38,201 nt of DNA from a virus (IMGVR_UViG_3300020181_000021:1-38201), one strand, 5' to 3'. Shown: positions 3,054 through 28,562, counted from the first letter of the stretch. Translations and numbers: made by a program. The notes: a model not told the origin generated them from the letters alone.

Positions 3054-3502
3054 TGGAAGTGCTTCCTATTGCCGTCCGCACAACCGCGGGTGTGGCAGGA
3101 ATCTGGGTTCTCGTTGCTGCGGTGATCGTCGTCGCGATTAAGGCGTGGCCCCTGCTGCGCAAGATGCAGCTCGAGGCCGATGGCTCGCTCAGAACCGATC
3201 TGCTTGCCCGGATCGCAGCTCTTGAGACTGCGAATGAGAAGGATCGAGCTGCCTGCGAAGAACGCATCGAGCGCAGCGAGGCCCGCTACGAAGAAGCCCT
3301 CCGCGAGATGAAGGAGGAGATCAAGTGGCTGCGGCACGAGCGCAACAACATGCGCGCGGGCTTCAACGCCATGCTCTCGATGCTGAAGCGGCCAGGCGCG
3401 GACGTGCCCACCATCATCGCCGCAGTCGAAGAGATGGTCACTCGGGGTGATGAGGTGATCGCCGTCGAGAAGGCCGCCATGGCGAAAGGAGCACACCAAT
3501 GA
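3053..3502 (+). CDS. Holin-like membrane-anchored coiled-coil protein
   Basis: ATG 3053 (TAATG coupling, GGGAG SD); one N-terminal TM then a coiled coil; directly upstream of the endolysin. Confidence 0.65.
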   Translation: MEVLPIAVRTTAGVAGIWVLVAAVIVVAIKAWPLLRKMQLEADGSLRTDLLARIAALETANEKDRAACEERIERSEARYEEALREMKEEIKWLRHERNNMRAGFNAMLSMLKRPGADVPTIIAAVEEMVTRGDEVIAVEKAAMAKGAHQ

Positions 3503-4092
3503 TTGATGTTCGACCGCTACAGCGCGCTCTCGGTGTGAATGCGGATGGCGCTCCTGGCCGCGTCACCTGGACGGCCCTCTTCCACAAGTGTGGAGCCAAG
3601 ATCGACCGCGCCGAAGAGCTGGCGCTAGCGGCCCATGTGCATTTCCCCCGCTACGGCCTGCTGGATGCCCCGCTGCGTCTGCCGCATTTCATGGCGCAGC
3701 TCAGCCATGAAAGCGGCGGCTTCCGCTACATGGAGGAAATCTGGGGGCCGACCGCTGCTCAGAAGAGATACGAGGGTCGCAAGGACCTCGGCAACACAGC
3801 GCCCGGCGACGGCTCACGGTTCCGAGGCAGAGGGCCGATCCAGATCACCGGCAGAGCGAACTACCGCTACTTCGGCCGCCTGATCGGCATCGACATCGAA
3901 CGCCATCCTGAGATCGCCGCGGTTCCGTCGATCGGCCTCCACTTGGCGCTGGAATACTGGAGCTCGCGCGACCTCAATGAGCTCGCAGACCTGGATGAGT
4001 GCGAGGCCATCACCCGGGCAATCAACGGCGGCCTCAACGGCTTCTCCGACCGCAAGGCGCGGCTCGGTCAGATGAAGGAATGGATGCTATGA
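3499..4092 (+). CDS. Endolysin, glycoside hydrolase family 19
   Basis: Motifs FMAQLSHESGG, RYEGRKDLGN, FRGRGPIQITGRANY, ITRAINGG; short PG-binding-like N-terminus (LQRALGVNADG). Confidence 0.93.
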   Translation: MIDVRPLQRALGVNADGAPGRVTWTALFHKCGAKIDRAEELALAAHVHFPRYGLLDAPLRLPHFMAQLSHESGGFRYMEEIWGPTAAQKRYEGRKDLGNTAPGDGSRFRGRGPIQITGRANYRYFGRLIGIDIERHPEIAAVPSIGLHLALEYWSSRDLNELADLDECEAITRAINGGLNGFSDRKARLGQMKEWML

Positions 4093-6486: not shown

Positions 6487-6511
6487 GGGGCACCTCTCTT
6501 TACAGCTCTCT

Positions 6512-6670
6512 CTAGGCGTCGAGTCTCGGCGAAAGACGGGCTTTAACTTGGTACCTGGAGGCGCTTCGCGCCGCGTGGCGCATCATCTTTGCCATGTCGT
6601 CGGGCTTGACGAGACGCGGTTCGTACCGGGTTTCCTCTCCGTCGCGTATCACGGTGTAGGTGACGTACAT
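6512..6670 (-). CDS. Hypothetical protein (52 aa)
   Basis: Own ATG at 6670 with GGAG SD; fused to the SNase in the ORF track only because of the frameshift. Confidence 0.55.
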   Translation of the reverse strand: MYVTYTVIRDGEETRYEPRLVKPDDMAKMMRHAARSASRYQVKARLSPRLDA

Positions 6671-6683
6671 ATTCAGTCTCCGT

Positions 6684-7042
6684 CTATTCGCACCAAGATC
6701 GGCGCTTGCCATCCCAGGTCCGCGCCAGCTTCTCGCGCACCAGCTGATCGCCAATCGACCGCCCTTGCGCGTAACCACGCGAAGCAACCTGCCATTCCTA
6801 TCACGATCCCGTCCACTGCGTACCAGCTCGAATGGACCTTCGTTGAGCAGGACCAGGAGCCGATCGCGAGCGCGGATGCCGAGCTCGTATTCAGCGCGGC
6901 ACTTCGGCTGACTGATTTCCGGCGTGTCGATGTCGGTGATGCGATACTTCTCGCCAGCAAGCCAGAAGGTGTCGCCATCATGGACGCAGTTGTCCCGTGG
7001 GTCGGGAGCGCAGAGAGTCAGGAGGGCGGCTGCTAGCAGCAT
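6684..7042 (-). pseudogene. Thermonuclease (SNase-like) with signal peptide, frameshifted by 1 nt
   Basis: DGDT, DIDTPE and DRNGR motifs; the expected C-terminus RSIGDQLVREKLARTWDGKRRSWCE* is in another frame after about 6762; span is 359 nt (3n-1). Confidence 0.8.
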
Positions 7043-7539
7043 GTTGCCCAAGCTCTAAGTGAGGCGGCGCAGAGGGCAAGCGCCGGCGTGACGGCGTGCT
7101 TCACCTCAACAAAGGCGTCGTCGCTGGCGTGCCCCCAGATCAATCGCTTGCCCATGCGGGAAGTGCTGGTTTGCTTGAGCCAAGCTCTAGAATGCGCGCC
7201 ATTCGGATCCGGCCATTCCTCCACACCCCTTACCCAACCCTCGGGCACAAGCGCGAGCGCGGCGCTTTCGTAAGCCAGCGCGCGCAACATCTTCTGGAAG
7301 GCGAACCACTCAGGGTGGTGGCAGACGATGGAGCCCTTGCGCGTCGAAAGGGGTCCCTTGATTGCCTCAAAGGCCTCTGTGAGCAGCTGTTCTTGATCGC
7401 TGCGCTCGCCTTCTTCCACCCGACCGGCGAGCTCGAGCAGTTCCGCGTTAGGGACACACGCCCGAAGGGCCGAGACCTTGGGCTCGGGCTCTGCCGAGTG
7501 GCCCGGCGGCGTAGCCGCAACGCCCTGATCTTGTGGCAT
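7033..7539 (-). CDS. Hypothetical phage protein
   Basis: ATG 7539 with AAGGAG; contains ALALVPEGW and TPALALCAASLRA motifs typical of a phage early-protein family. Confidence 0.75.
   Translation of the reverse strand: MPQDQGVAATPPGHSAEPEPKVSALRACVPNAELLELAGRVEEGERSDQEQLLTEAFEAIKGPLSTRKGSIVCHHPEWFAFQKMLRALAYESAALALVPEGWVRGVEEWPDPNGAHSRAWLKQTSTSRMGKRLIWGHASDDAFVEVKHAVTPALALCAASLRAWATCC
7445..7525 (+). repeat. Structured repeat element, copy A (inverted relative to B-D)
   Basis: GCGTT-A-GGGACAC..GCCC-GAA-GGGC-CGAGAC..GGCTCGG..CGA-GTGGCCC-G-GCGGC-GTA-GCCGC-AACGC-CC. Confidence 0.75.
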
Positions 7540-7576
7540 TATCCTCACTCCTTTCCTTGTAAGTGGGTGGGAGAGG

Positions 7577-7990
7577 TCACTGAACCAACGCGCCTTGCTC
7601 GATCTCGATGGGCGTGAACTGCGGATGCTTGTTCGCCATGTGGGCGGCCAGCTGCTGGAACGTCCGGTTGCAGCACGGGCAGACGCCGGCCTTCGCCCGC
7701 TTGGTGATGCGGGTTGCGTGCCCCTTGTAGCCGTTGGCGCGATTGCGCTCATGCTCCGCGCGCTGCTCGGCGGTGCGTATCCGGTCTTCCTTATAGGCAA
7801 GCTGCTGCTTGAGGCGGTCCCGCTCCTGCCGAAGCTTATCCGCTTCGGACTGCCCCTTGGTAAAATGCCGCTGGTGCCCGTTGGGGCAGAAGAAGGCCTC
7901 GCCATCCTCAAGGCGCTGCTTTTTCAGGGCAGCGGGGAAGCCCCACACGCAACCGCACTGGCCGCAGGTGTGCTCAACTAGCTCAACCAT
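7577..7990 (-). CDS. Zn-finger coiled-coil phage protein
   Basis: ATG 7990 with GGAGGT; CxxC, CPNGH and C-terminal CPCC..H...H motifs. Confidence 0.8.
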   Translation of the reverse strand: MVELVEHTCGQCGCVWGFPAALKKQRLEDGEAFFCPNGHQRHFTKGQSEADKLRQERDRLKQQLAYKEDRIRTAEQRAEHERNRANGYKGHATRITKRAKAGVCPCCNRTFQQLAAHMANKHPQFTPIEIEQGALVQ

Positions 7991-8005
7991 GAGCGACCTC
8001 CCAAG

Positions 8006-8025
8006 TGGTCCGCAGATGGTCCGCA
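8006..8025 (+). repeat. attP integrase arm-type sites (tandem TGGTCCGCA)
   Basis: TGGTCCGCAGATGGTCCGCA, identical to 8227-8246 on the other side of the core. Confidence 0.75.
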
Positions 8026-8102
8026 AGTGCCGCTTTGTTCGCCATTGAATCGCGCTCCGTTCCAAAAAAACTGGACAGAGATACGCATGGGTGGGGCTAT
8101 TT

Positions 8103-8146
8103 CTCTCGGTGTAAACGAGATGCTCTACCAACTGAGCTAACCGCCC
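8103..8146 (-). other. attP core: 5' half of tRNA-Val(TAC)
   Basis: Minus strand GGGCGGTTAGCTCAGTTGGTAGAGCATCTCGTTTACACCGAGAG gives the acceptor 5' strand, D arm and anticodon arm (TAC); no T arm or 3' end; 27 bp from the integrase stop. Confidence 0.88.
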
Positions 8147-8170
8147 GAACGCACTCTGTATGCCGCAGTA

Positions 8171-8199
8171 ATCCTAAGCTTCGGCCATATTTCTGGCAA
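8171..8199 (-). promoter_or_regulatory. Sigma70 promoter for the tRNA half
   Basis: TTGCCA-N17-TAGGAT, overlapping the integrase stop codon, 24 bp upstream of the tRNA 5' G. Confidence 0.7.
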
Positions 8200-9397
8200 G
8201 TGAAATCGGCTTGCCTCTTACTGGTTTGGTCCGCAGATGGTCCGCAGACCAGAGATCGGCGTGCCGCGCCACTTCCTTGAAGAAGGCCGTCAAAACCGCA
8301 ATAGCCTTGGCTGCTTTTCGAGGGTCGTAGTGGAGGTAATGGCTGCTCGTCGTGCGGGCGATTCCCCGGCTCGACGGTAGGTGTCCGGTGATGCCGCTAA
8401 GCTGCGCACCGGGCACGCCTTTGGTGTCCATGAGCGTCGTGATCGTGTGTCGGATGTCGTAGGCCTCGAGGTCTGGCATGTTCAGAACCCGCCGAGCGGT
8501 TCGCCACCAGGTCTTGCGGCTCTTGACCTTCGGGTGCGGAGATTCCTTCCAAGCCTTCAGGATCGGCTTCAGGGGCTCGATGGTTGGCACGATAGCATTG
8601 CGCTTGTCGGTTTCCTCGCGCTCAGGCTGCAGGTCGATCAAGCCGTCCTTCCATTGTGCCGCTGGATCGAACGCCATCGCCACTCCCGGCCTGCAGGCTG
8701 TGCCGACCATCAAGGCGATCTCGCGCCAGATCCCCACATCCTCCCGCGCATAGGCCCAGAGAGCCCCCAGAGCAGCCGGAGAGAGCATCTGTGGGTCAGA
8801 CCCTCCCCTTAGCTTGCGGTCCACGCTCGGCACCTTAGGCGCGCTCACACGACGCTCGCCTTCCGCGTAGTTCAGGGCTGCGCGCAGGTCTTCGATATTG
8901 CGCTGGACCGCGTGACCGGAGACCCCCGAGGAGGAATGGCGGAAAGTCTTGCCGCCCCAGTCGACTTCCCAGCTATGCGGTTTCATGCGCCACCGGCGGA
9001 AGCGATCCACAACGCCGGGGGTGATGTCTGCCACCCTCACCTGTGTTCCAAGCTCGTCTTGCATCAGGAAGCCGATCCAAGCCCGGAAGCTGCTCTTGAT
9101 GGTGTCGAGCCGGTGAATGTCGGGCCCACGCTCGCGCAGGTAGTTGAACAGGTGTGGCAGAAGCTCAGCGGTGTGCGCGTGCTGGTTCTTGCTGGTGGAC
9201 CGCTGCTGGGCCTCGTAGGCGCGTAGGACCGCCTTGGCGGCATCGAGTTCTACAGTCCGGCACTTAGTGCTGCGATAGACAACGGACCGCGACTTGTCGG
9301 CGTAGGTGGCGATTTGCCAGATGTCCGGCGACTTGCCGTCCCGTCGCTTGTCGAGCCAATATTCGCCGACGATGAGGGGGGAGTCGGCGCGGGACAT
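8174..9397 (-). CDS. int: Tyrosine recombinase (phage integrase)
   Basis: GTACRPG (catalytic R), YDIRHT (HxxR-equivalent), ITGH and TTSSHY (catalytic Y); adjacent attP. Confidence 0.92.
   Translation of the reverse strand: MSRADSPLIVGEYWLDKRRDGKSPDIWQIATYADKSRSVVYRSTKCRTVELDAAKAVLRAYEAQQRSTSKNQHAHTAELLPHLFNYLRERGPDIHRLDTIKSSFRAWIGFLMQDELGTQVRVADITPGVVDRFRRWRMKPHSWEVDWGGKTFRHSSSGVSGHAVQRNIEDLRAALNYAEGERRVSAPKVPSVDRKLRGGSDPQMLSPAALGALWAYAREDVGIWREIALMVGTACRPGVAMAFDPAAQWKDGLIDLQPEREETDKRNAIVPTIEPLKPILKAWKESPHPKVKSRKTWWRTARRVLNMPDLEAYDIRHTITTLMDTKGVPGAQLSGITGHLPSSRGIARTTSSHYLHYDPRKAAKAIAVLTAFFKEVARHADLWSADHLRTKPVRGKPISLARNMAEA
8227..8248 (+). repeat. attP arm-type sites inside the int 3' end
   Basis: (TGGTCCGCAGA)x2. 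Confidence 0.75.
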
Positions 9398-9537
9398 AGC
9401 TCTTCGGCCTCGATCTCTGATAGCAGCTTCAGGACGCCATGCTCACCGAGCAAGCGCAACTGTTCGTTGGTGAAGGTTGCCCCGGTTCCGTTCCGAATGG
9501 CACGGCGGAATTTGGAGGCGACGGCGTGTACGCTCAC
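9250..9537 (-). CDS. Small protein upstream of int, possible excisionase
   Basis: GTG start with GGAGG; position directly upstream of and overlapping int; function inferred from position only. Confidence 0.5.
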   Translation of the reverse strand: MSVHAVASKFRRAIRNGTGATFTNEQLRLLGEHGVLKLLSEIEAEELCPAPTPPSSSANIGSTSDGTASRRTSGKSPPTPTSRGPLSIAALSAGL

Positions 9538-10160
9538 CTCTGCCTCCTGTGTGGAGTATGGCGGCTAGTTACGGGCGCATCGCTTTCAGCGACCGGGCTC
9601 TCGCCTACGGCCGAGCCACTGCGTGTCTCGTCGGCTGTCGCCGCTTCGATCCCTTGCGCGGTCCGCCAGATCACAAGCACACAGCCGAAGGGCGGGGAGC
9701 TGTGGAACTTGCCCTCCGGATTGTTCGGCAAGCCGAAATTGAAGCGGCTCCGATAGAAGCGCGTTTGGATGGGGCCGCGCCCGTCGCGGAAGGGCTCTAT
9801 CAAGTCCTGCCACCAACCTTGCTCAGTCCGGTTGGCTGGCAAGAGCATCACGATTACGGCGCAGCCAGCGCGGTGCTCCGCCCATGCCTTTTCAACCCAC
9901 GGGCGGATGTCGCTATAGGGAGGATTGCACCAAACACGGTGTCCGTGCCAATCCTGTGCCAGGCCATCGTTGCTAAGGCTGAAAAACGTAGGGGTCTTGG
10001 CGTTGTTGTCGTTGGCTGCGGCGTCAAGCGTGAAGTCGAACTCCTCCATCAAAGGGCCGAATACTCTCTCCGGCGTAATGCGCTCGTCGACGGTATCGCG
10101 AGCGCCCCGCCTGCCCACCTGCTGCGGGTGGTTCTTGATCTTGAAGCCCACTAGGCTCAC
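9534..10160 (-). CDS. Phage DNA N6-adenine methyltransferase (Dam-like)
   Basis: FTLDAAA, DGLAQDW, VWCNPPY and VMLLPANRTEQGWW motifs; GTG 10160 with GAGGG SD. Confidence 0.9.
   Translation of the reverse strand: MSLVGFKIKNHPQQVGRRGARDTVDERITPERVFGPLMEEFDFTLDAAANDNNAKTPTFFSLSNDGLAQDWHGHRVWCNPPYSDIRPWVEKAWAEHRAGCAVIVMLLPANRTEQGWWQDLIEPFRDGRGPIQTRFYRSRFNFGLPNNPEGKFHSSPPFGCVLVIWRTAQGIEAATADETRSGSAVGESPVAESDAPVTSRHTPHRRQR
9573..9659 (-). repeat. Structured repeat element, copy B
   Basis: GCGCA-A-GGGATC-GAA..CGAGAC..GGCTCGG..CGA-GAGCCC-G-GTCGC-TGAAA-GCGA-TGCGC-CC. Confidence 0.8.
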
Positions 10161-10270
10161 GGCCGCCCTCCCGCGATAGGGATGCTGCCTATGGTGGAGA
10201 CGCGCAGCGGTTCCAGTGCGAAGCACCAGCAGCCCGGGGCCGTAGGGCATCGCCATAATGAAGTATTCAC

Positions 10271-10693
10271 CTACCTCTCCCCCAAAAGAGAAGAAGTACC
10301 AAGGGAAGGAGGCTCGGGAAGCGGACGCCAGTGGGTCACATCGACTGCGCGGCGATCCATTTCAGTGTGATACCATCCGGGCGAAGTATTGCCGTCGTAG
10401 TGGGCAGGACTGAACCGCTCCCCCGAAGCATCACCTACAGCCGAAGGTGGGGTATCGTCGGGAGTGTGCATTTCTACGGGCCGAACCATCGTGGCGCGCT
10501 GGCTGGCGATGCTCTGGGGCGCGTGTCCCCAGAAGAACTCGCCAGACGAGACAATGTAGGCGTCAATCCGCCCCTCATTGCTGCCGTACTCCGTCTTGAG
10601 GCAAAGCTCCCCAGCGCACATGAACAGGCCGATAGGGCACGCGGCCAAGGTCACTTCCTCCGCCTGAACGACGGGCACAAGTTCACTTGCCAT
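10271..10693 (-). CDS. Hypothetical protein with DUF551-like C-terminus
   Basis: VTHWRPLPEPP motif. Confidence 0.75.
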   Translation of the reverse strand: MASELVPVVQAEEVTLAACPIGLFMCAGELCLKTEYGSNEGRIDAYIVSSGEFFWGHAPQSIASQRATMVRPVEMHTPDDTPPSAVGDASGERFSPAHYDGNTSPGWYHTEMDRRAVDVTHWRPLPEPPSLGTSSLLGER

Positions 10694-10970
10694 TGGGAGA
10701 GCCTCCGTTGAGGGCGGGTGCTTGCTGCGAGGACCAGTTCTTGTCGAAGTCGGCCATCGCTTCAGCCATTGTCTTGCCGAAGCCCGCGCAGCCGCTCATC
10801 AGGTCATCGCCGTAGAGTGCGCAGTAGTGGTCGCCGTCGAGACTGACGGTAGGGCGATAAAGGACGCTCGGCCGCGTCTGATCCCAAGCGGCAGCCTGCC
10901 ACTCAGCGAACGCCATGCGCGCCTCATGAATGATCCCGTTGGCGGCGATCTGTGACCATTCCTCGGTCAT
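10683..10970 (-). CDS. Hypothetical phage protein
   Basis: Coupled ORF; DGDHYCALYGDDLMSGCAGFG motif. Confidence 0.75.
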   Translation of the reverse strand: MTEEWSQIAANGIIHEARMAFAEWQAAAWDQTRPSVLYRPTVSLDGDHYCALYGDDLMSGCAGFGKTMAEAMADFDKNWSSQQAPALNGGSPNGK

Positions 10971-11539
10971 GCCGTCTCTCCAATGTCCGGATTTTCATCA
11001 GCCCAAGGGGTTCCGGTGCCGTGGGCAGGGCAGGCGAGGTCTTCGCCAAAGGCTTCCATGCAGGTGCAGCTTCCCACCACCGCAGGAGCCCTCTCCCCAT
11101 CGTCGGTGGGGCGGGATGCTAGGGCGGCGAGGATGCAGTGCATTTGCTCTAAACTGACTACGCAGGTCGGCCAGCCATGAACGATGCAAGGCGTGAACCG
11201 CTCGACTACCGACTGCGCGACAGGGTCCAGCCCCTCCGCATCCCCGCTTGCTGGAACAGGAGAGGGGGTGTTGCGGGAAGTGAGGTCGCGAACGGTCTTG
11301 AGGGTGCGGATCATCGCAGCCGCTTCAGGATACTGCCGTTCGACCATTCGGGCAGCGGTTTCAGCGCCTAACGCAAAAAGTCGGTTCTGCTCATCCGCCA
11401 GCAACGCTTCTGCCGGGGGGATATGTTTGGGTATGGTCCGCCCATGTTCTGGCGAATGCCTATCGGCACCGGGGCTCTCGTGAACCGAGCCCGTTCCGGT
11501 CTCGGCCCTATCGGGCTTCGATCCCCTTTCGGTTGTCAT
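10967..11539 (-). CDS. Hypothetical phage protein (mosaic)
   Basis: ATG 11539 overlaps the NinB stop; first about 30 codons come from repeat copy C. Confidence 0.65.
   Translation of the reverse strand: MTTERGSKPDRAETGTGSVHESPGADRHSPEHGRTIPKHIPPAEALLADEQNRLFALGAETAARMVERQYPEAAAMIRTLKTVRDLTSRNTPSPVPASGDAEGLDPVAQSVVERFTPCIVHGWPTCVVSLEQMHCILAALASRPTDDGERAPAVVGSCTCMEAFGEDLACPAHGTGTPWADENPDIGETA
11451..11531 (-). repeat. Structured repeat element, copy C
   Basis: CGAA-AG-GGGATC-GAA-GCCC-GATA-GGGC-CGAGAC..GGCTCGG-TTCA-CGA-GAGCCC-CG-GTGCC-GATA-GGCA-TTCG-CC. Confidence 0.8.
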
Positions 11540-11931
11540 GCCGCTTGCCTCTCGTCTGAAAGTTGAATGCCGTGCTCGGCCGCAAAGGCGCGGATGCACT
11601 CGATGAGGTCGCTGAACTCGGCCTTCCGCAGACGGCTCGACTTGAACCCCAGCGGCACCACGCCTTGACCATCCAGCGACGGCTCAAAGGTGCAGGTGAA
11701 CCCCGCCTGGTGCATGAAGAGCGCCTTCCAGGTCTCGGTTGGCAGCACCCTTCCTCGAGGCTTGGCGCGGGCGATCTCGCTCAGCAGCGCCCACAGGAGC
11801 GCGTTCTGGTCGTTTGTGCGGCGAGCCTCTGCGATGTTGCACACCGCGCCTTCCGGAGCTCGGTCGATCAGCGACTTGGCGCGCTGCCGAGCAACGGGGT
11901 TGGACAGGATGACGGTCTGGCCGTTAGCCAT
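11536..11931 (-). CDS. ninB: NinB/Orf-family recombination protein
   Basis: RRTNDQNALLWALL, WKALF and SSRLRKAEFSDLIE..AFAAEHG motifs. Confidence 0.88.
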   Translation of the reverse strand: MANGQTVILSNPVARQRAKSLIDRAPEGAVCNIAEARRTNDQNALLWALLSEIARAKPRGRVLPTETWKALFMHQAGFTCTFEPSLDGQGVVPLGFKSSRLRKAEFSDLIECIRAFAAEHGIQLSDERQAA

Positions 11932-12322
11932 TGCGCGCCTCCCATGCGACGCGGCCGGGCCACTTGCGCCAATATTCGCCGGCAACCGCTACGGCGTTGA
12001 AGCCATACTTGAGCTCGAACGATCGCCACCCGCCCCGCTGGCGGAACTCGCCGATCTTGCCGCTTTGCTCGTCATGGTGACGTTGGCAGAGCGGCAGGGC
12101 GAAGCGATCGCTCGCCTTGGTGCCCATGCCCTTGTCGCCGCCATGGTCAACGTGCGCGGCTTCGACGGGAGAGCGGCGCGGCGGATCACCTAAGCCGCAC
12201 CCTCCTGCCCTATGCCCGTCAAGGTAGCACGCGCGACCACGCAGCCACTGGAGATAAGTCGGTGCCGACTTCTCCGCTGGCCGGGGTGCGTTGCGCCTAC
12301 GAGGGGCGACGTTGACGGGCAT
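11924..12322 (-). CDS. DUF968/HNH-like putative nuclease
   Basis: YLQWLR, EAAHV, GMGTKASD, LPLC..HH motifs. Confidence 0.75.
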   Translation of the reverse strand: MPVNVAPRRRNAPRPAEKSAPTYLQWLRGRACYLDGHRAGGCGLGDPPRRSPVEAAHVDHGGDKGMGTKASDRFALPLCQRHHDEQSGKIGEFRQRGGWRSFELKYGFNAVAVAGEYWRKWPGRVAWEARNG

Positions 12323-12325
12323 GGC

Positions 12326-12589
12326 TCAGTATGGAACCGAGTCCGCGTCGTCGCCGTAGGACGGATAGCCCTGCGACGGTTGCGAACGGCCCTGCTGCTG
12401 CCCGCCACCGCTGTTGTCGCGCGGCTCAAATAGGTTCGCGACACACCGGCCCTCCGCATCCGGCAGCGGGAGAGCGTCGAACACGAGCTGGATGCCCTTG
12501 TCGCCTTCCCACGCGGTGCCGATGCGGGTCCAGAACGTCTTATCCTTGCCCTTGCGCGGGCTCATGATGTCGTAGCGCTTGTTGGCCAT
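12326..12589 (-). CDS. Small ssDNA-binding-like protein
   Basis: KTFWTRIGTAW..IQLVFDALP core with an acidic DDADSVPY tail; adjacent to the recombinase. Confidence 0.7.
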   Translation of the reverse strand: MANKRYDIMSPRKGKDKTFWTRIGTAWEGDKGIQLVFDALPLPDAEGRCVANLFEPRDNSGGGQQQGRSQPSQGYPSYGDDADSVPY

Positions 12590-12591
12590 TG

Positions 12592-13215
12592 TCAGGCTGC
12601 CTTCTTGTTGGAATTGATGAAGCGCTGAGCTTCGGAGAGTTGTTCGTAGGTGACCTCGCGCAAGTCTTTGGGCGCCAGGTGACGCAGCAGTGCGCCGGGC
12701 TCGGCGTTCACGCTCTGAAGCTGTGCAATGAGCCAATCGCGGGTCTTGTCGTTGATCGGACCGGTGGGCCGTCCGACGCCAGCTAGAGCCTTCGCGAAGA
12801 TGTCCTGCGCCTCAGGCTTCCAGGCGCTCCACTTGTCGTTGTAGAGCTCGCAAGGGGCCCACACGTTGCCCAGGTCATAGAGATAGCGGCCGATGCCCCA
12901 CTTGACTGCGGCACGCTTGAAGGCGTCGGAAATGCCGCCTTTCTCGCCTTCGACTGCTGTGTTGCCGGCCCCATCGCTTTTTGTGATCCACTGCCCGTCG
13001 ATTTGGATGGACAGCTTGCACAGCACGCGCCCGCTCGCGCTTTCGTCATAGTAGTCTGTCCAGTTGGCAGGACCGACTGCTGCATCGAGGCGATCCATGA
13101 CATCGCGAGCGTCGAGATAGGCCAGCGCAAGAGCCTTGGTCTTGTCGCGGGTTAGCGTCTGCGCTCGCCAGTGGATGGCTTGCGGAGGGAATGGCGCGGA
13201 TAGCTTCTCGAGCAT
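12592..13215 (-). CDS. sak: Rad52/Rad22-family (Sak) single-strand annealing protein
   Basis: LAYLDARDVMDRLD and EKGGISDAFKRAAVKWGIGRYLY motifs. Confidence 0.92.
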   Translation of the reverse strand: MLEKLSAPFPPQAIHWRAQTLTRDKTKALALAYLDARDVMDRLDAAVGPANWTDYYDESASGRVLCKLSIQIDGQWITKSDGAGNTAVEGEKGGISDAFKRAAVKWGIGRYLYDLGNVWAPCELYNDKWSAWKPEAQDIFAKALAGVGRPTGPINDKTRDWLIAQLQSVNAEPGALLRHLAPKDLREVTYEQLSEAQRFINSNKKAA

Positions 13216-13922
13216 TATGCGGCTCTCTTTTCAATTCTAATTTCCACGCCTGGGAGTTCGGCCGGCAATGCCTTTTGCGCATATGCCGTCAGCCAATCGC
13301 CGAGCGCGGCAGGATCGTTGCCGGCCACCCAGTTGAGCAGCATCCGGCGATTGGTGACGGTGGCGACCTTGTAGGTGCGCAGGCTGATCGCCCGATCCAT
13401 GCCAGCCACGTGCGCCTTCTGTTTGCCGGCGTTCTGAGCAATCTTTGCGGCCCTGTCGGCCTCGCGCTCTAGCTGCTGAACGCGCGCGAGCGCTTCCATA
13501 CCGCCCGTACTGATCGCCAGTGCACGGGCGGCCTCCACAGCCTCCCGCGCCTTCACATTCGCTTCCTCGCGGGCCTTTGTCTCAGCTGCACGCTGCCGTT
13601 CTGCAAGGGCGGTTAGATATGCCGTGAGCGGACCTTGCGCCGCAGCCAGTATAGCGTCGCAGCGCTCATCAAGCGGCTTCCACTTGGCATCCACCGCGAG
13701 ACTTGCGAGGTGATGCGGGCGCTTTTCCTTCCTGCGGGCCGCATCCGCATCCTTCTTGAGCTTCCGAACCTCGCTTAGGATGCGCCCAACCTGATCGGCT
13801 TGGCCTTGCGTCTCAATGGGCGTGCCATCGAGGAAATCCTTCGCTGTGCTGTAGGCATCGTCCAGCGCCATACCGAACGTCTCGAACGGACCTGAGTTGT
13901 GGCCAAAGCCGGGCTCAGACAT
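13215..13922 (-). CDS. Coiled-coil protein of the recombination module
   Basis: GHNSGP N-terminus, coiled coil, C-terminal LPGVEI; upstream of Sak. Confidence 0.75.
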   Translation of the reverse strand: MSEPGFGHNSGPFETFGMALDDAYSTAKDFLDGTPIETQGQADQVGRILSEVRKLKKDADAARRKEKRPHHLASLAVDAKWKPLDERCDAILAAAQGPLTAYLTALAERQRAAETKAREEANVKAREAVEAARALAISTGGMEALARVQQLEREADRAAKIAQNAGKQKAHVAGMDRAISLRTYKVATVTNRRMLLNWVAGNDPAALGDWLTAYAQKALPAELPGVEIRIEKRAA

Positions 13923-14121
13923 CGGCCGCTTCCTTGATGAAGGCGCGAATGTGCGCGACATCTTCGCCCCGGCCCTCCCGGCGACTGCATTCCATCTGGA
14001 GCAGCGCGAGCGCCTTGCTCAGCGTGCGCTCCAGGTTGCGGCAGTGAGCGCGCTCCCGCTGGTATGCGCCGAAGCTGTCGAACGGCTTGATCGCGGGTTC
14101 GATGCGTTCTTGAACGGTCAA
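13915..14121 (-). CDS. Hypothetical protein
   Basis: TTG start overlapping the upstream TGA, GGAG-rich SD; start uncertain. Confidence 0.55.
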   Translation of the reverse strand: MTVQERIEPAIKPFDSFGAYQRERAHCRNLERTLSKALALLQMECSRREGRGEDVAHIRAFIKEAADV

Positions 14122-14275
14122 CGCCTCTCTCCCTTCCCTGCGCGTCCGGCTTCCTCGCTCCTGACGCGCTGTGATGGTGCAGGCGAGGCTGCGGCGGAAA
14201 CAGGTGGACGGGTGCGCGGCGTGGGATTGCTCCACTGGCCGTGTCCGGGGCGGTAGTTCCAGACGTGGGCGGCCT

Positions 14276-14515
14276 TCACGGGCGCACCCCTTCCGGGGCC
14301 GGGCTGTCGTGAACGGAGCCGCCTTCAGCGTCTCCGCCCTGACGGGCTTCCATCCCTTGCGCGATTAGATGCCGGTTCCAGCACTCGCCGCTTCCATCTT
14401 CAGTGAAGCAAGCGGGGCATCCGGTCTCCCCGTTGTCGTCCGACACCCAACGATCATCACCCCAGTTAAGGGGCTGGTTGCAGCCGATGCAGCGAAGGCG
14501 CGAGAACTTGGTCAT
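14276..14515 (-). CDS. Small Cys-rich hypothetical protein
   Basis: CxxC..CxxC; C-terminus encoded by repeat copy D. Confidence 0.65.
   Translation of the reverse strand: MTKFSRLRCIGCNQPLNWGDDRWVSDDNGETGCPACFTEDGSGECWNRHLIAQGMEARQGGDAEGGSVHDSPAPEGVRP
14280..14362 (-). repeat. Structured repeat element, copy D
   Basis: GCGCA-A-GGGATG-GAA-GCCC-GTCA-GGGC-GGAGAC..GGCTCCG-TTCA-CGA-CAGCCC-G-GCCCC-GGAA-GGGG-TGCGC-CC. Confidence 0.8.
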
Positions 14516-14958
14516 ACCGCCGCCTTCGCCATATCCTTGGCGTATTCGGCCTCAGCCCACTCGACAGACCGCTCCAGCAGTTGCTGTCCGGTTTCGGCGA
14601 ACAGCAGTTGCGTCTTGTAGTAGCCCCAGGAGAACGAAGCTCCGTTGCGATCGCTGTGCGGCTTGAACACGGGCGTGGCAGCGATCCCGAGCCAGCCTGA
14701 AACGCCCTTACGACAGGCCTCTCCGCAAAGTTCGTTGAAGGCTTCGGTGAACGTCCAACCGCGCCCGGCGAACAGCTCATCCCGCTCTTCTTCGCGCCAC
14801 TTCTCGTAGAGGGCGGCGATCGCGGCCGGCATACGATCGTCGTGATATTCGAAGGCCTCAGCCAGCTCTTCGGAGGGCTCGGAAACGGGGAATGGCCATG
14901 CCGCCTCAATGCGGACATTGCCGTCGAACATGCGCTCGTAGACTGCCGGAATAGGCAT
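14512..14958 (-). CDS. Hypothetical phage protein
   Basis: ATG 14958 (TGATG coupling, AGGAG SD). Confidence 0.7.
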   Translation of the reverse strand: MPIPAVYERMFDGNVRIEAAWPFPVSEPSEELAEAFEYHDDRMPAAIAALYEKWREEERDELFAGRGWTFTEAFNELCGEACRKGVSGWLGIAATPVFKPHSDRNGASFSWGYYKTQLLFAETGQQLLERSVEWAEAEYAKDMAKAAV

Positions 14959-15158
14959 CAGCGTTCTCCTGCGATAGCGATTGAAGTGGCGAAGCCAGCG
15001 AGACTGCTTGCAGGCTCGACCGAAGGCGAAAGCGCGGCAGCGCCGAAGGCGATGATCGCCCATGTGAAGGCAGCGGCAGCAAACCCCGCCACCTCCCTCA
15101 CCACCTCCTCAGTCCCCATAACCAGACAGCACTCAGTGATCTTGGAGAGGATGGTCAT
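14958..15158 (-). CDS. Small membrane protein
   Basis: Coupled ORF with a hydrophobic core. Confidence 0.5.
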   Translation of the reverse strand: MTILSKITECCLVMGTEEVVREVAGFAAAAFTWAIIAFGAAALSPSVEPASSLAGFATSIAIAGER

Positions 15159-15598
15159 GACCGGTCCTCCACGATCTTGAGGCCGCGCTTGGCGAGTTCG
15201 GCGCGAAAGGTGTTTAAGAACTTCGGCCCGTCTTGTTCATAAGTCGGCGCCATCTTCTTTCGCTCGTGGCCGAGGAAATCGTTCGGAATGATTCGGCGAG
15301 CTGCCGTTGCTTCCACGGCAACGCGAACGGCTTCCTCCAAGGGGTCCACCGGATCGGGTAGGATGAAGGGGACAAGCCGGGGTGCAATCTGGCCATGCCA
15401 GTGCGGCACGCTTACCAGCGCTTCTGTGGATGCCTTCGCCGCATCGCTTACCTGCTGGCAGAGGGCGATTAGGGCGAGCATCGAGGCGGGCACGAACCGT
15501 GAGCCATCAAGCTGATCGAGCTGCCAGTTGGAGGTTGGCTCTTGGGCATTCGCCAGCTCACACGCCTTGAGCTTCGCCTGTTCCGAAAACTCACTCAC
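15155..15598 (-). CDS. Hypothetical phage protein
   Basis: 147-aa coupled ORF. Confidence 0.7.
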   Translation of the reverse strand: MSEFSEQAKLKACELANAQEPTSNWQLDQLDGSRFVPASMLALIALCQQVSDAAKASTEALVSVPHWHGQIAPRLVPFILPDPVDPLEEAVRVAVEATAARRIIPNDFLGHERKKMAPTYEQDGPKFLNTFRAELAKRGLKIVEDRS

Positions 15599-15777
15599 GA
15601 CAATCCCTCCCCAATGGCATCCAACTGGACCCGGACATCTGAGATCATGTCTCGGTGGAGTTGGGCTTCCCGAGCATCGAGATCGCGGATGGCTTGCAGG
15701 CAGGCCGCAACCCGCTGGTCCCAGTCATCCTGAGGCACAGAGCCGTGGCGTTCGGTGTGCGGGGTGTAGCGGGTCAT
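15595..15777 (-). CDS. Hypothetical protein
   Basis: ATG 15777, coupled to neighbouring genes. Confidence 0.55.
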   Translation of the reverse strand: MTRYTPHTERHGSVPQDDWDQRVAACLQAIRDLDAREAQLHRDMISDVRVQLDAIGEGLS

Positions 15778-15907
15778 GCGAACCAGCCCACAACCATGTC
15801 GAGGTAAGCTATCGCCGCGAGAACGTAGCAAAGCACGGCGTAGAACCGCTCAGAGCGCTCCCACTGCATCTGCCCCATCAGCAGGCACAGAAAGCCGACC
15901 GCCCCGC

Positions 15908-16099
15908 TCACTTGCCATACTCCTGAATGAACTGCCTCACCCGGCGCGAAGTGCGCTCACCAGGCTTGCGACCATCCCTCAGCATCGGCACGAACCGAGG
16001 ATCGTTGACGGCAGACCGACCGAACCTGCTCTCAGCCATCCGTGTGCGCTGAAGGAAGGGGTCTATCTGGTTGAGGAGGTTGAGGGTGCGCGGGTTCAT
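15908..16099 (-). CDS. Small Cro-like DNA-binding protein
   Basis: FLQRTRMAESRFGRSAVNDPRFVPMLRDGR resembles alphaproteobacterial phage XRE/Cro-like proteins. Confidence 0.75.
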   Translation of the reverse strand: MNPRTLNLLNQIDPFLQRTRMAESRFGRSAVNDPRFVPMLRDGRKPGERTSRRVRQFIQEYGK

Positions 16100-18196: not shown

Positions 18197-18339
18197 TGCA
18201 ACACTCTCCCGCTGGCTGGTTTGCACCAGTCTGAGAGTGGCTCGGATACAACGTATGTTGTTGAGGGACGTTCCTTTCCTGGCGGCGTCAAGCCCTCGCC
18301 GGCCAACGATGACGGCATGTGCCCGACAGGGGGTGCGGC

Positions 18340-18942
18340 GTGAGGGTCCTGGTCGCCTGCGAATACAGTGCCACCGTGCGCGACGCCTTCCGTGCTCGCG
18401 GCTTCGATGCGTGGTCCTTGGACCTCCTTCCGACTGAGGGTGATCCTCGCTGGCACATCAAGTTCGGGTTCGAGGAGTACGTCAAGGCGGGTGGCTATTA
18501 CTACGGGTGGGACCTGCTTATCGCCCATCCGCCGTGCACCGACCTCGCTGTCAGCGGAGCTCGGCACTTCGCTGCCAAGGTAGCAGACGGACGACAGGCC
18601 CGCGCGCTGGAGTTCGTGCAGCGCCTTCTGGACGCGCCCATTCCGCACATCGCGCTTGAGAACCCGGTCAGCATCATCAGCTCGCGCATCCGCAAGCCCG
18701 ACCAGATCATCCAGCCCTGGCAGTTCGGGCATGGGGAAACGAAGGCAACCTGTCTCTGGCTCAAGAACCTGCCCAAGCTGGCGCCGACCAACGTCGTTGA
18801 CGGCCGGTCCGACCGCATCCACAAGATGCCCCCCGGGCCGAACCGCTGGAAGGAACGCTCGCGCACCTACCCCGGCATCGCTGCCGCCATGGCCGAGCAG
18901 TGGGGCGACTTCCTCCTGAGCCAGCACAGGGAAGCCGCCTAG
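18340..18942 (+). CDS. Phage DNA cytosine methyltransferase-like protein
   Basis: VLVACEYS, AHPPC (catalytic PC), ENPV, TKATCLWLK and RSRTYPGIAAAMAEQW motifs. Confidence 0.85.
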   Translation: MRVLVACEYSATVRDAFRARGFDAWSLDLLPTEGDPRWHIKFGFEEYVKAGGYYYGWDLLIAHPPCTDLAVSGARHFAAKVADGRQARALEFVQRLLDAPIPHIALENPVSIISSRIRKPDQIIQPWQFGHGETKATCLWLKNLPKLAPTNVVDGRSDRIHKMPPGPNRWKERSRTYPGIAAAMAEQWGDFLLSQHREAA

Positions 18943-27228: not shown

Positions 27229-28562
27229 TGGCGAACACCTTCTTCACGGAAAGCAAGTGGGGCAAGCGGCTTGCAGGAGCGGTAGGTCGTTCGAAGCTCA
27301 CGCTGGCGACCCTTGGCGAGAGTCACGGCACCTATCTCTATGTCGGCGAGGCGATCGGCTATGCGCTCCAGCGCTACTACCCTGCAGACATCATCTACGA
27401 CTATCGCACATACGACCCTGAGGAGCCTGCCGAGGGCGGGCAGAGCTTCGCGGTCGGTGCCACCACAATCGATGAGGACACGCCCGGACAAGAGGGCCTG
27501 CAGTCGCAGGTGACCAACTGGTTCCCGAACCGACCGGCAGACATCTGCATCGTGATGGCGGGGTGGAACGACTGCGAGCTGGCTGACAGCGCTGCGACAA
27601 TTCTCGGCCGCCTAACCGCGGCGATTGACGACTTGTTCGCGCAGGGAGCGCTGCATGTCATTGTCGGCGGAATCGGCCCAAGCGGAGGTGCGGCGGGAGC
27701 TGGCGGGACGATCAAGCGCGAGTTGCTGAACATCCTGATCCGGGACTACTGCCGGGCAACCCCGTACGTCCACTTCTGGGATGTGTATTCGGTCCTCGGT
27801 GGGGGCAATGACTCGAGCAACCCGCGGCTCTTTGCGACCCCGACGAACAGGTGGCTGACCAGTGACAACACGCACTGGAGCGCGCTCGGTGGACGGGAAA
27901 TGGCCCCATCGCTCGCGGCTATTTTCCAGAATATCGGCTTGCCGCTGCGCAGTCCGCGCCGGCTTGCGCCGCTTGGCGCCTATGATCCGGTCAACCGTCC
28001 TTACACGAACATGCTCGGCGATCTCGGTGCGATGCTCGGGACTTCGGGCATCGGCCCGGGTGGCGGCTTTGACGGGACGACAGCCGGCACCGGCGCAACC
28101 TCGCGATTGGAGGTAACCGACACCGGCGGGCTGACGGCCGCAACCTCGATCATCACCGACGCCAAGGGCATCCGCAAGCAGCGCTTCACGATGAGCGGCT
28201 CGGGCGACGGCAATCTCCTGCAGGTGACCTTCCGCAACGGGATCAGTGCGGCGGATGGCGGCGTGGCGGGCCGCTTCATGGAACTCGAAATGTCCGTGGA
28301 CTTGACGGCTATGGTCGGGCTGACGGCGCTCTACGTCAGTGCGAACGGCCACAACTCACCGACGCGGATCAGTCAGAACAGCAATGATGCGGAGCTGCAC
28401 GGGGCGCGAACTGAAACGTTGCTGCTGCGGACGACTTACCCCATCCCCGTCCCGGCCGGCTCGCTCGATTATGGCATTAGTCTGACGGCAGCGTTTGGCG
28501 GTGCATCCCCGAGCGGAACCCTCGACGTCTACAACGCGACAGCAGCGCTGGTCGAAGAATGA
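27228..28562 (+). CDS. SGNH/GDSL hydrolase-domain virion protein
   Basis: LGES (block I), MAGWND (block III), DNTHW (block V); beta-rich C-terminal domain. Confidence 0.78.
   Translation: MANTFFTESKWGKRLAGAVGRSKLTLATLGESHGTYLYVGEAIGYALQRYYPADIIYDYRTYDPEEPAEGGQSFAVGATTIDEDTPGQEGLQSQVTNWFPNRPADICIVMAGWNDCELADSAATILGRLTAAIDDLFAQGALHVIVGGIGPSGGAAGAGGTIKRELLNILIRDYCRATPYVHFWDVYSVLGGGNDSSNPRLFATPTNRWLTSDNTHWSALGGREMAPSLAAIFQNIGLPLRSPRRLAPLGAYDPVNRPYTNMLGDLGAMLGTSGIGPGGGFDGTTAGTGATSRLEVTDTGGLTAATSIITDAKGIRKQRFTMSGSGDGNLLQVTFRNGISAADGGVAGRFMELEMSVDLTAMVGLTALYVSANGHNSPTRISQNSNDAELHGARTETLLLRTTYPIPVPAGSLDYGISLTAAFGGASPSGTLDVYNATAALVEE

Follow-up and report, generated by a model that had tools for sequence, protein, structure and literature searches.

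The 38,201-nucleotide (nt) viral contig IMGVR_UViG_3300020181_000021:1-38201, hereafter the window, carries repeated copies of an element of about 85 bases whose predicted fold combines a three-way with a four-way junction. We find this element to be a real and widespread family of single-stranded DNA (ssDNA) structures, apparently undescribed, in which a single DNA fold connects three kinds of mobile element (tailed phages, microviruses and conjugative plasmids) with only a single-stranded stage in common. As to its function, we tentatively favour a signal of the single-strand initiation (ssi) or single-strand origin (sso) type, through which a host enzyme would begin the complementary strand on DNA lying 5' of the element. 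The initial annotation of the window could assign the element to no named family, and an Rfam 15 covariance search of the whole window likewise returned no match for it, the sole hit at E ≤ 1 being a tRNA fragment. The literature that we searched contained no description of it; the early ssi papers and those on the CUP repeats are known to us through citations only. Natural multi-junction DNA folds with comparable covariation have rarely been described.

Fold and covariation of the element

The initial annotation listed four copies, A–D, with a common layout of helices. All four are present at the coordinates given (Table 1), and a core pattern of the element occurs at four places in the window, compared with a mean of 0.12 (maximum 2) in 100 Markov shuffles. 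The count fell short, since two further intact copies, E and F, and a probable decayed copy, G, had been missed. The helices are as described: P0 is GCGTT:AACGC in A, GCGCA:TGCGC in B and D and CGAA:TTCG in C; P1b is CAC:GTG in A, TC:GA in B and C and TG:CA in D; P3 is CGAG:CTCG or GGAG:CTCC. The layout lacked a further short hairpin, P4, which makes the inner junction four-way. In the completed model P0 (GCG.. : ..CGC, followed by CC and a G-poor tail) closes the three-way junction with P1 and hairpin P5, and P1, composed of G[G/C]G, an A·G, two pairs and GA opposite GA, closes the four-way junction with hairpins P2, P3 and P4. P3 consists of SGAG, an A·G and a variable hairpin; its A and G are invariant in 141/141 copies. 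The 3' flank is poor in G (15% versus 31%), which fits an open tail.

The helices covary. In a structure-blind MAFFT alignment of 69 copies, 91.4% of the paired cells can pair, compared with 74.8% after shuffling and 30–46% when the partners are slid, and two-sided changes number 244 versus 86. The larger alignment and covariance model that had been proposed as a check gave two-sided compensatory changes at 24 of 25 pairs (141 model-aligned copies, an alignment that leans towards structure). The model (R1) was built from 69 copies, taken from the window and from the loci of the first viral pattern search; copies A–E are in its training alignment and F is outside the training set. An RNAalifold consensus from the four original copies was partly wrong. 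Copies are also translated, and the two peptide tags quoted in the initial annotation are found in the Dam open reading frame (ORF) and in ORF 14276-14515. The covariation supports the view, put forward there from the sequence alone, that selection acts on the nucleic-acid fold instead of on these peptides.

The fold appears to be one of DNA. The loops of 258 non-redundant copies include, on the element strand, 388 cGNAg triloops, 74 other GNA loops, 88 GNYA, 115 GNRA, 39 cTTg and 3 TTCG loops (2,217 loops were counted, of which 1,510 are other, largely incidental hairpins), and the opposite strand has just six cGNAg triloops. A reading of the opposite strand as UNCG tetraloops was rejected, as the stems covary in the triloop register. 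G·T pairs make up about 1% of the paired cells (13/1403 and 32/2991, two junction positions excluded), which is low for an RNA family. With DNA parameters the P0/P1a/P5 scaffold forms in each of the four original copies; with RNA parameters none of them forms the P1 helix. GNA and GNNA mini-hairpins are described as stable in DNA, resistant to nucleases and poorly bound by single-strand binding protein (SSB), and as present in the G4, RSF1010 ssiA and N4 signals (PMC13037366). Together these features support folding as DNA rather than RNA, as the proposal of an ssDNA fold had anticipated. The alternative raised alongside it, a structured RNA such as a put-like antiterminator or a processing signal, can point to the position of the copies in the early operon and to the GNRA loops. 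We regard it as extremely improbable: triloops and GNYA loops predominate, G·U is rare, the P1 helix is lost under RNA parameters, the 185 phage copies lie in both orientations (97 antisense, 80 sense, 8 unclear), and plasmid copies sit on the template strand.

Hosts of the element and the strand it occupies

Two viral pattern searches returned 49 and 127 loci, with a profile match in 49 and 86 of them. Such a match was also present in 113 of 122 loci from metagenomes and in 30 of 120 from the genome collection, these last coming from Alpha-, Beta- and Gammaproteobacteria and Bacteroidota, among others. The pattern used on the genome collection was too loose, as this last fraction shows, and the 5,400 stretches that it estimates cannot be taken as the number of elements. 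Bacterial genomes hold at least one to four matches each (five genomes, 150 candidates scored in each). Matches in mycobacteriophage tail genes are regarded as chance. Five tailed phages searched whole carry 3–13 copies each, and Sphingopyxis phage VSN-002 has four. The richest is a 51-kb phage (G020, the contig behind locus L015) with 13 copies across 5042-26303, 12 of them within 12 kb; it is the best candidate for the study of cassette arrays.

Eight microviruses carry the element: Gokushovirus WZ-2015a (64 bits, in the VP1-VP2 gap), Microviridae sp. SD_MC_78 (41 bits, between VP3 and VP4) and six from IMG/VR. In 8/8 the copy lies on the capsid-coding strand, and each of the seven records searched whole has one copy only. 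Seven small viral records that are not microviruses were left out of this count, and a screen of the metagenome loci for further microviruses with the element found none. One of the copies occupies the gap after the major capsid gene, where G4 has its annotated complementary-strand origin. The element is a candidate for the start of the second strand in some gokushovirus-like phages.

In plasmids, blastn with copy D matched 4,063 of 72,556 records, 3,533 of them across most of its length and 3,040 of them conjugative; a microvirus copy matched 819, including plasmids of Pseudomonas, Xanthomonas and Burkholderia. Such single-copy searches depend on the variant used, and copy B found no match in plasmids and copy C none in E. 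coli genomes. The element is unannotated in thousands of conjugative plasmids, including F, whose establishment is under active study. All 23 leading-region copies in seven plasmids (F, pLAO102, R46, NAH7 and three others) lie opposite to ssb/ard-type genes, on the template strand of the leading genes in F, IncN and NAH7 plasmids. At loci resembling integrative and conjugative elements (ICEs) the element stands upstream of ArdC on the opposite strand in 10/10 cases and is opposite to DUF932 in 5/5 and to long ParB in 14/14 ORFs. No protein family tracks it; the commonest neighbour, a DUF968 HNH protein, occurs at 28 of 227 loci. Single copies on the coding strand of microviruses, and copies on the template strand of plasmid leading genes, point to a general ssDNA signal and not to a shuffling site specific to phages.

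IncN-type backbones have a conserved copy directly after stbC (L486:22077-22166; NZ_CP024853.1 17343-17430; NZ_CP026025.1 7481-7568). It is the first on that strand past the stb operon, with no leading gene in promoter orientation. NZ_CP026025.1 has two more copies (40462-40553 and 45427-45504) on the other strand and outside the leading region examined, perhaps in a second backbone. Beyond Proteobacteria and Bacteroidota, a plasmid of Sporomusa (Negativicutes) matches over almost the full length of the element (NZ_CP146992.1 55274-55365).

Copies around phage genes

Placement at gene junctions, as first suggested from the window, is non-random. With gene calls from our own simple caller, checked against the VSN-002 annotation alone, a gene boundary falls between -20 and +40 nt in 147 of the 185 phage copies (from 87 loci), compared with 34% of random positions. 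The 3' (CGCCC) end is directed at the junction, and 57 of the 97 antisense copies are in intergenic DNA. Neighbouring copies form 65 divergent (median gap 409 nt), 30 convergent and 23 tandem arrangements, and in 38 of 62 cassettes no stop interrupts the frame across the two copies. Their cargo is heterogeneous and mostly unknown (a PHROG family for 14/61 ORFs, a Pfam family for 5/64); the recognized genes include Acb3, Dam, RNA ligase, SPFH and methyltransferases. An Acb3 anti-CBASS gene (L075:4088-5005; PF25187, E 3e-78) lies within an outward-facing pair.

The two ends of a pair differ. P1a is GGG in 32 of 35 upstream and 15 of 47 downstream copies, the latter favouring GCG; in loci from a less biased pattern the figures are 7/9 and 2/17 (p 0.0016). 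Partners are 67.2% identical (maximum 76%), against 67.3% for random copies, and any target duplication is at most 3 nt in 47 of 53 pairs. Homologs of the Dam protein of the window at 75%, 73% and 81% (partial) amino acid identity lack the element. The similarity covers 9654-10163, beginning at the start codon and stopping at the last codon, which is inside copy B. One such bare homolog (L322, 2990-3010) ends in GCGCAA before its stop, the same six bases with which copy B starts (9660-9680 in the window), possibly a microhomology at the inner cassette edge, in this one case. The slot after NinB holds a different next gene, without the element, in each of the seven closest relatives, and VSN-002 has a full pair there. 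An empty site had been suggested as a check: neither the Dam homologs nor the NinB-slot relatives supplied a clean one with both flanks conserved. Among the neighbours at 227 loci no dedicated recombinase tracks the element; the integrases nearby are ordinary phage ones, their two largest clusters occurring at 20 and 11 of these loci. The pairs offer a concrete handle on the exchange of single genes in phage early regions exactly at gene boundaries.

By gene content the window is a 38.2-kb contig of a temperate tailed phage, with Dam methyltransferase, NinB, HNH, an Erf-like annealing protein, repressor, O-like initiator, terminase, portal and capsid genes. All copies are within its leftward early region (Table 1). 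The six intact ones each score E < 1e-5 in the covariance model, and the next match has E 0.19. Their order is G(-) A(+), B(-) F(+), C(-), D(-) E(+), with outward-facing pairs G-A, B-F and D-E. Copy G, in which the outer stems alone form, would be the partner of A; a single weak locus was found to be related to the cargo between them. The most likely start of the Dam gene is the GTG at 10160, just inside copy F, and copy E is just upstream of the ribosome site of ORF 14512-14958 (gene start 14958). Contigs of the one sequencing run that contains the window, possibly its source, covered 6500-16000 at an even depth near 30, with no joint at any element.

Table 1. Copies of the element and associated genes in the window
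Feature	Position	Strand	Remarks
Copy G, probable decayed copy	7070..7156	-	9.4 bits, E 3.3, alone not significant; near 3' end of ORF 7033-7539
Copy A	7445..7525	+	60 bits; antisense, within N-terminus of ORF 7033-7539
Copy B	9573..9659	-	74.5 bits; sense, read as part of Dam methyltransferase C-terminal tail
Copy F	10173..10254	+	35.7 bits, E 9.5e-6; antisense, directly upstream of Dam ribosome site
Copy C	11451..11531	-	67.4 bits; unpaired, sense, N-terminus of ORF 10967-11539, right behind NinB stop
Copy D	14280..14362	-	85.9 bits; sense, C-terminus of ORF 14276-14515
Copy E	14971..15061	+	54.5 bits; antisense, tail of ORF 14958-15158
ORF 7033-7539	7033..7539	-	168 amino acids, between G and A, putative cargo; no PHROG or Pfam family
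Dam-family methyltransferase gene	9534..10160	-	PF05869, E 8e-26; cargo of B-F pair
ORFs 14276-14515 and 14512-14958	14276..14958	-	cargo of D-E pair; no PHROG or Pfam family
NinB, DUF968 HNH, Erf-like ssDNA-annealing protein, exonuclease-like gene	11536..13922	-	ssDNA-generating recombination module
Integrase	8174..9397		

Other features of the window are as follows. The tRNA fragment at 8093-8146 (-) beside the integrase end resembles an attP core; two identical 20-nt tandem-motif repeats (8007-8026 and 8227-8246) flank it and look like integrase arm sites. A second DNA methyltransferase (18319-18942 +) and a chitinase-like endolysin (3499-4092 +) are not bracketed by the element.

Possible functions and relation to known systems

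In microviruses, plasmids and phage cassettes alike, the element lies on a single strand, 3' of the DNA to be copied, which makes an ssi-type signal, carried by a predicted, strand-specific branched ssDNA fold, the likeliest reading. These strands would be the viral genome in microviruses, the transferred strand with its leading operons in plasmids and either strand of a cassette in tailed phages. The strand biases of the microvirus and plasmid copies agree with the ssi/sso class. Microviruses require a complementary-strand start signal (PMC9865509), and plasmids and ICEs are described as converting their strands through host RNA polymerase, primase or primosome sites (PMC4595007). We infer that the reader is encoded by the host, because microviruses of 4–6 kb carry the element and no protein family accompanies it. 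This enzyme would make a primer at the element; published rifampicin data on F lead us to favour host RNA polymerase over primase or PriA. In tailed phages a pair of copies would equip the 3' end of each cassette strand with a conversion signal, by which ssDNA set free in exonuclease/annealing-protein recombination could become double-stranded, be expressed and be captured at gene junctions. A wider version of this proposal, possible in our view but doubtful, extends the ssDNA signal and its host-encoded reader to the mobilome as a whole: the signal would act in self-converting gene cassettes of tailed phages, during the entry of F-like, IncN and IncP-9 plasmids and of ICEs, and as a further type of microvirus minus-strand origin. 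Two outward-facing copies would then supply each strand, at its 3' end, with a signal for priming or recombination, and single accessory and anti-defence genes such as Dam and Acb3, with no integrase of their own, could be copied out and swapped between phages.

Several observations weigh against an ssi-type signal. The model finds no match in phiX174 or G4 at E ≤ 2 and none in M13 or ColIb-P9, and its best match in ColE1 has E 0.15. In F the element lies about 95 nt outside ssiD, and comparison by eye shows it to be absent from the listed ssiE and ColIb ssi1-3 sequences. Rifampicin is reported to abolish early conversion of the F loci 5' of both copies, and this conversion is ascribed to Frpo transcripts (both bioRxiv 10.64898/2026.01.09.698686); the sensitivity disfavours priming by primase or a primosome and leaves the RNA polymerase route. 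The microviruses number just eight, come from searches based on the element and need not be independent. Folding energies are unremarkable (mean z -1.55 for DNA and -1.22 for RNA, 40 copies). Finally, priming alone does not explain the P1a polarity (GGG upstream, GCG downstream) or the exact bracketing of genes.

These last features are what a folded-ssDNA recombination site would account for. Outward-facing pairs would be the left and right ends of cassettes that a host or phage recombinase inserts or exchanges at gene junctions, with attC-like chemistry in an inverted layout. The concentration of copies at gene boundaries, the excess of divergent pairs, the bare Dam homologs with similarity ending exactly at the gene's own codons, the unrelated cargo, the end polarity and the changing gene after NinB all argue for it. 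However, single microvirus copies and same-strand plasmid copies need no cassette ends, partners are no more alike than random copies, target duplications are minimal and no recombinase family tracks the element. Neither a clean empty site nor, in the one sequencing run, a joint at an element was seen, and coding constraints could produce part of the polarity. We hold this explanation to be doubtful. That the fold protects or acts as a decoy, resisting 3' exonucleases and the loading of SSB or RecA or titrating a host ssDNA sensor such that single strands survive on entry or during recombination, is unlikely. It would suit a fold at the 3' end of each cassette strand, the resistance of GNA mini-hairpins to nucleases and SSB (PMC13037366) and neighbours such as the anti-defence genes ArdC, Acb3 and methyltransferases, but circular microvirus strands have no ends to protect, and the invariant A·G of P3 suggests specific recognition over a mere block.

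The element might also be an ssDNA promoter of a new class, or an aid to a promoter, with early mRNA made from the template strand. Its location on that strand ahead of the leading operons (F, IncN, ICE-like loci), the many intergenic antisense phage copies and the proximity to Frpo1 and Frpo2 would be compatible with this. We consider it distinctly unlikely: the coding strand holds 80 of 185 phage copies and every microvirus copy, the copy next to stbC would transcribe antisense, the consensus has no AT-rich -10-like box, and in F a true Frpo stands between the element and the genes. The miniature mobile element envisaged in the initial annotation, a selfish REP-, SRM- or MITE-like repeat inserting at gene junctions, could explain in-frame copies at gene ends, with many cassettes stop-free throughout, and the high copy number per phage. 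The strict strand bias in plasmids and microviruses, the low number of matches in bacterial genomes, the dissimilar partners, the lack of target duplication and the absence of the SRM motif (below) make it very unlikely.

On our preferred reading the element would work like an ssi/sso; it falls outside Frpo, the PAS, G4 and M13 origins, attC, MITEs, SRMs and every Rfam family. SRM/NTS and REP-type repeats are likewise small ssDNA hairpin repeats flanking genes, but SRMs are described as single hairpins of 20–50 nt tied to GIY-YIG Ssn genes, and the degenerate SRM hairpin motif occurs in 0/475 element copies (PMC11893778). Miniature inverted-repeat transposable elements (MITEs) have near-identical terminal inverted repeats and target duplications; the identities and duplications reported above are of another kind. 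Like attC and the DUF1874 motif, the element is folded ssDNA at gene-cassette boundaries with variable hairpins (PMC5737381). The attC analogy of the initial annotation holds for the cassette-like layout and the bare Dam homologs but not for the array: attC sites form direct repeats, one per cassette, and the element forms inverted pairs or stands singly, with no linked integrase family at 227 loci.

The phiX174 primosome assembly site (PAS) and the G4 primase origin resemble it in each being one structured viral-strand element in an intergenic gap with GNA/GNNA mini-hairpins (PMC9865509). The phiX174 and G4 gaps nevertheless fold as rows of simple hairpins, and the element has neither sequence nor fold similarity to the PAS, G4, M13 or ColE1 origins. 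The sso of rolling-circle plasmids and sso1 of ICEBs1 resemble it, by description and without sequence comparison, in having several stem-loops on a single strand of a plasmid or ICE, but have been described from Firmicutes. We know of no sso in inverted pairs around phage genes. Such origins are read by host RNA polymerase or primase (PMC4595007).

In IncN plasmids the CUP repeats (pKM101/R46) are ArdK-controlled promoter repeats, as described in PMC5371602. R46 has three diverged element copies, all on the same strand. Two of them are adjacent to, and not inside, the long upstream repeats of the ccg/ard operons, about 135 and 90 nt past these repeats; the third follows stbC, distant from them. 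The F roadblock ssp2 was not equated with the element, being placed beside yffB/yfgB and described as a promoter stem-loop (bioRxiv 10.64898/2026.01.09.698686). Frpo and ssiD of F, class 1 ssDNA promoters together with ColIb-P9 ssi1-3, are defined by ssiD/ssi1-3 homology and a long stem that rebuilds -35 and -10 boxes. The element has neither: it is a compact GC-rich multibranch fold, found also in phages without Frpo, and ColIb-P9 has no copy. Long pyrimidine-rich tracts (purine-rich on the element strand) lie 3' of both F copies (L302:22960-23080 and 28330-28480). Two low-certainty Frpo* windows of PMC11541004 end in the element, unremarked in the table of that paper. The F copies (58089-58175 and 63477-63563) stand beside Frpo2 and Frpo1, 3' of the 351-nt ssiD, outside the promoter and inside the Frpo1/Frpo2 duplication; by the listing of Samuel et al. 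(PMC11541004) ssiD is on the same strand as the element, with which it shares the leading region and the duplicated block.

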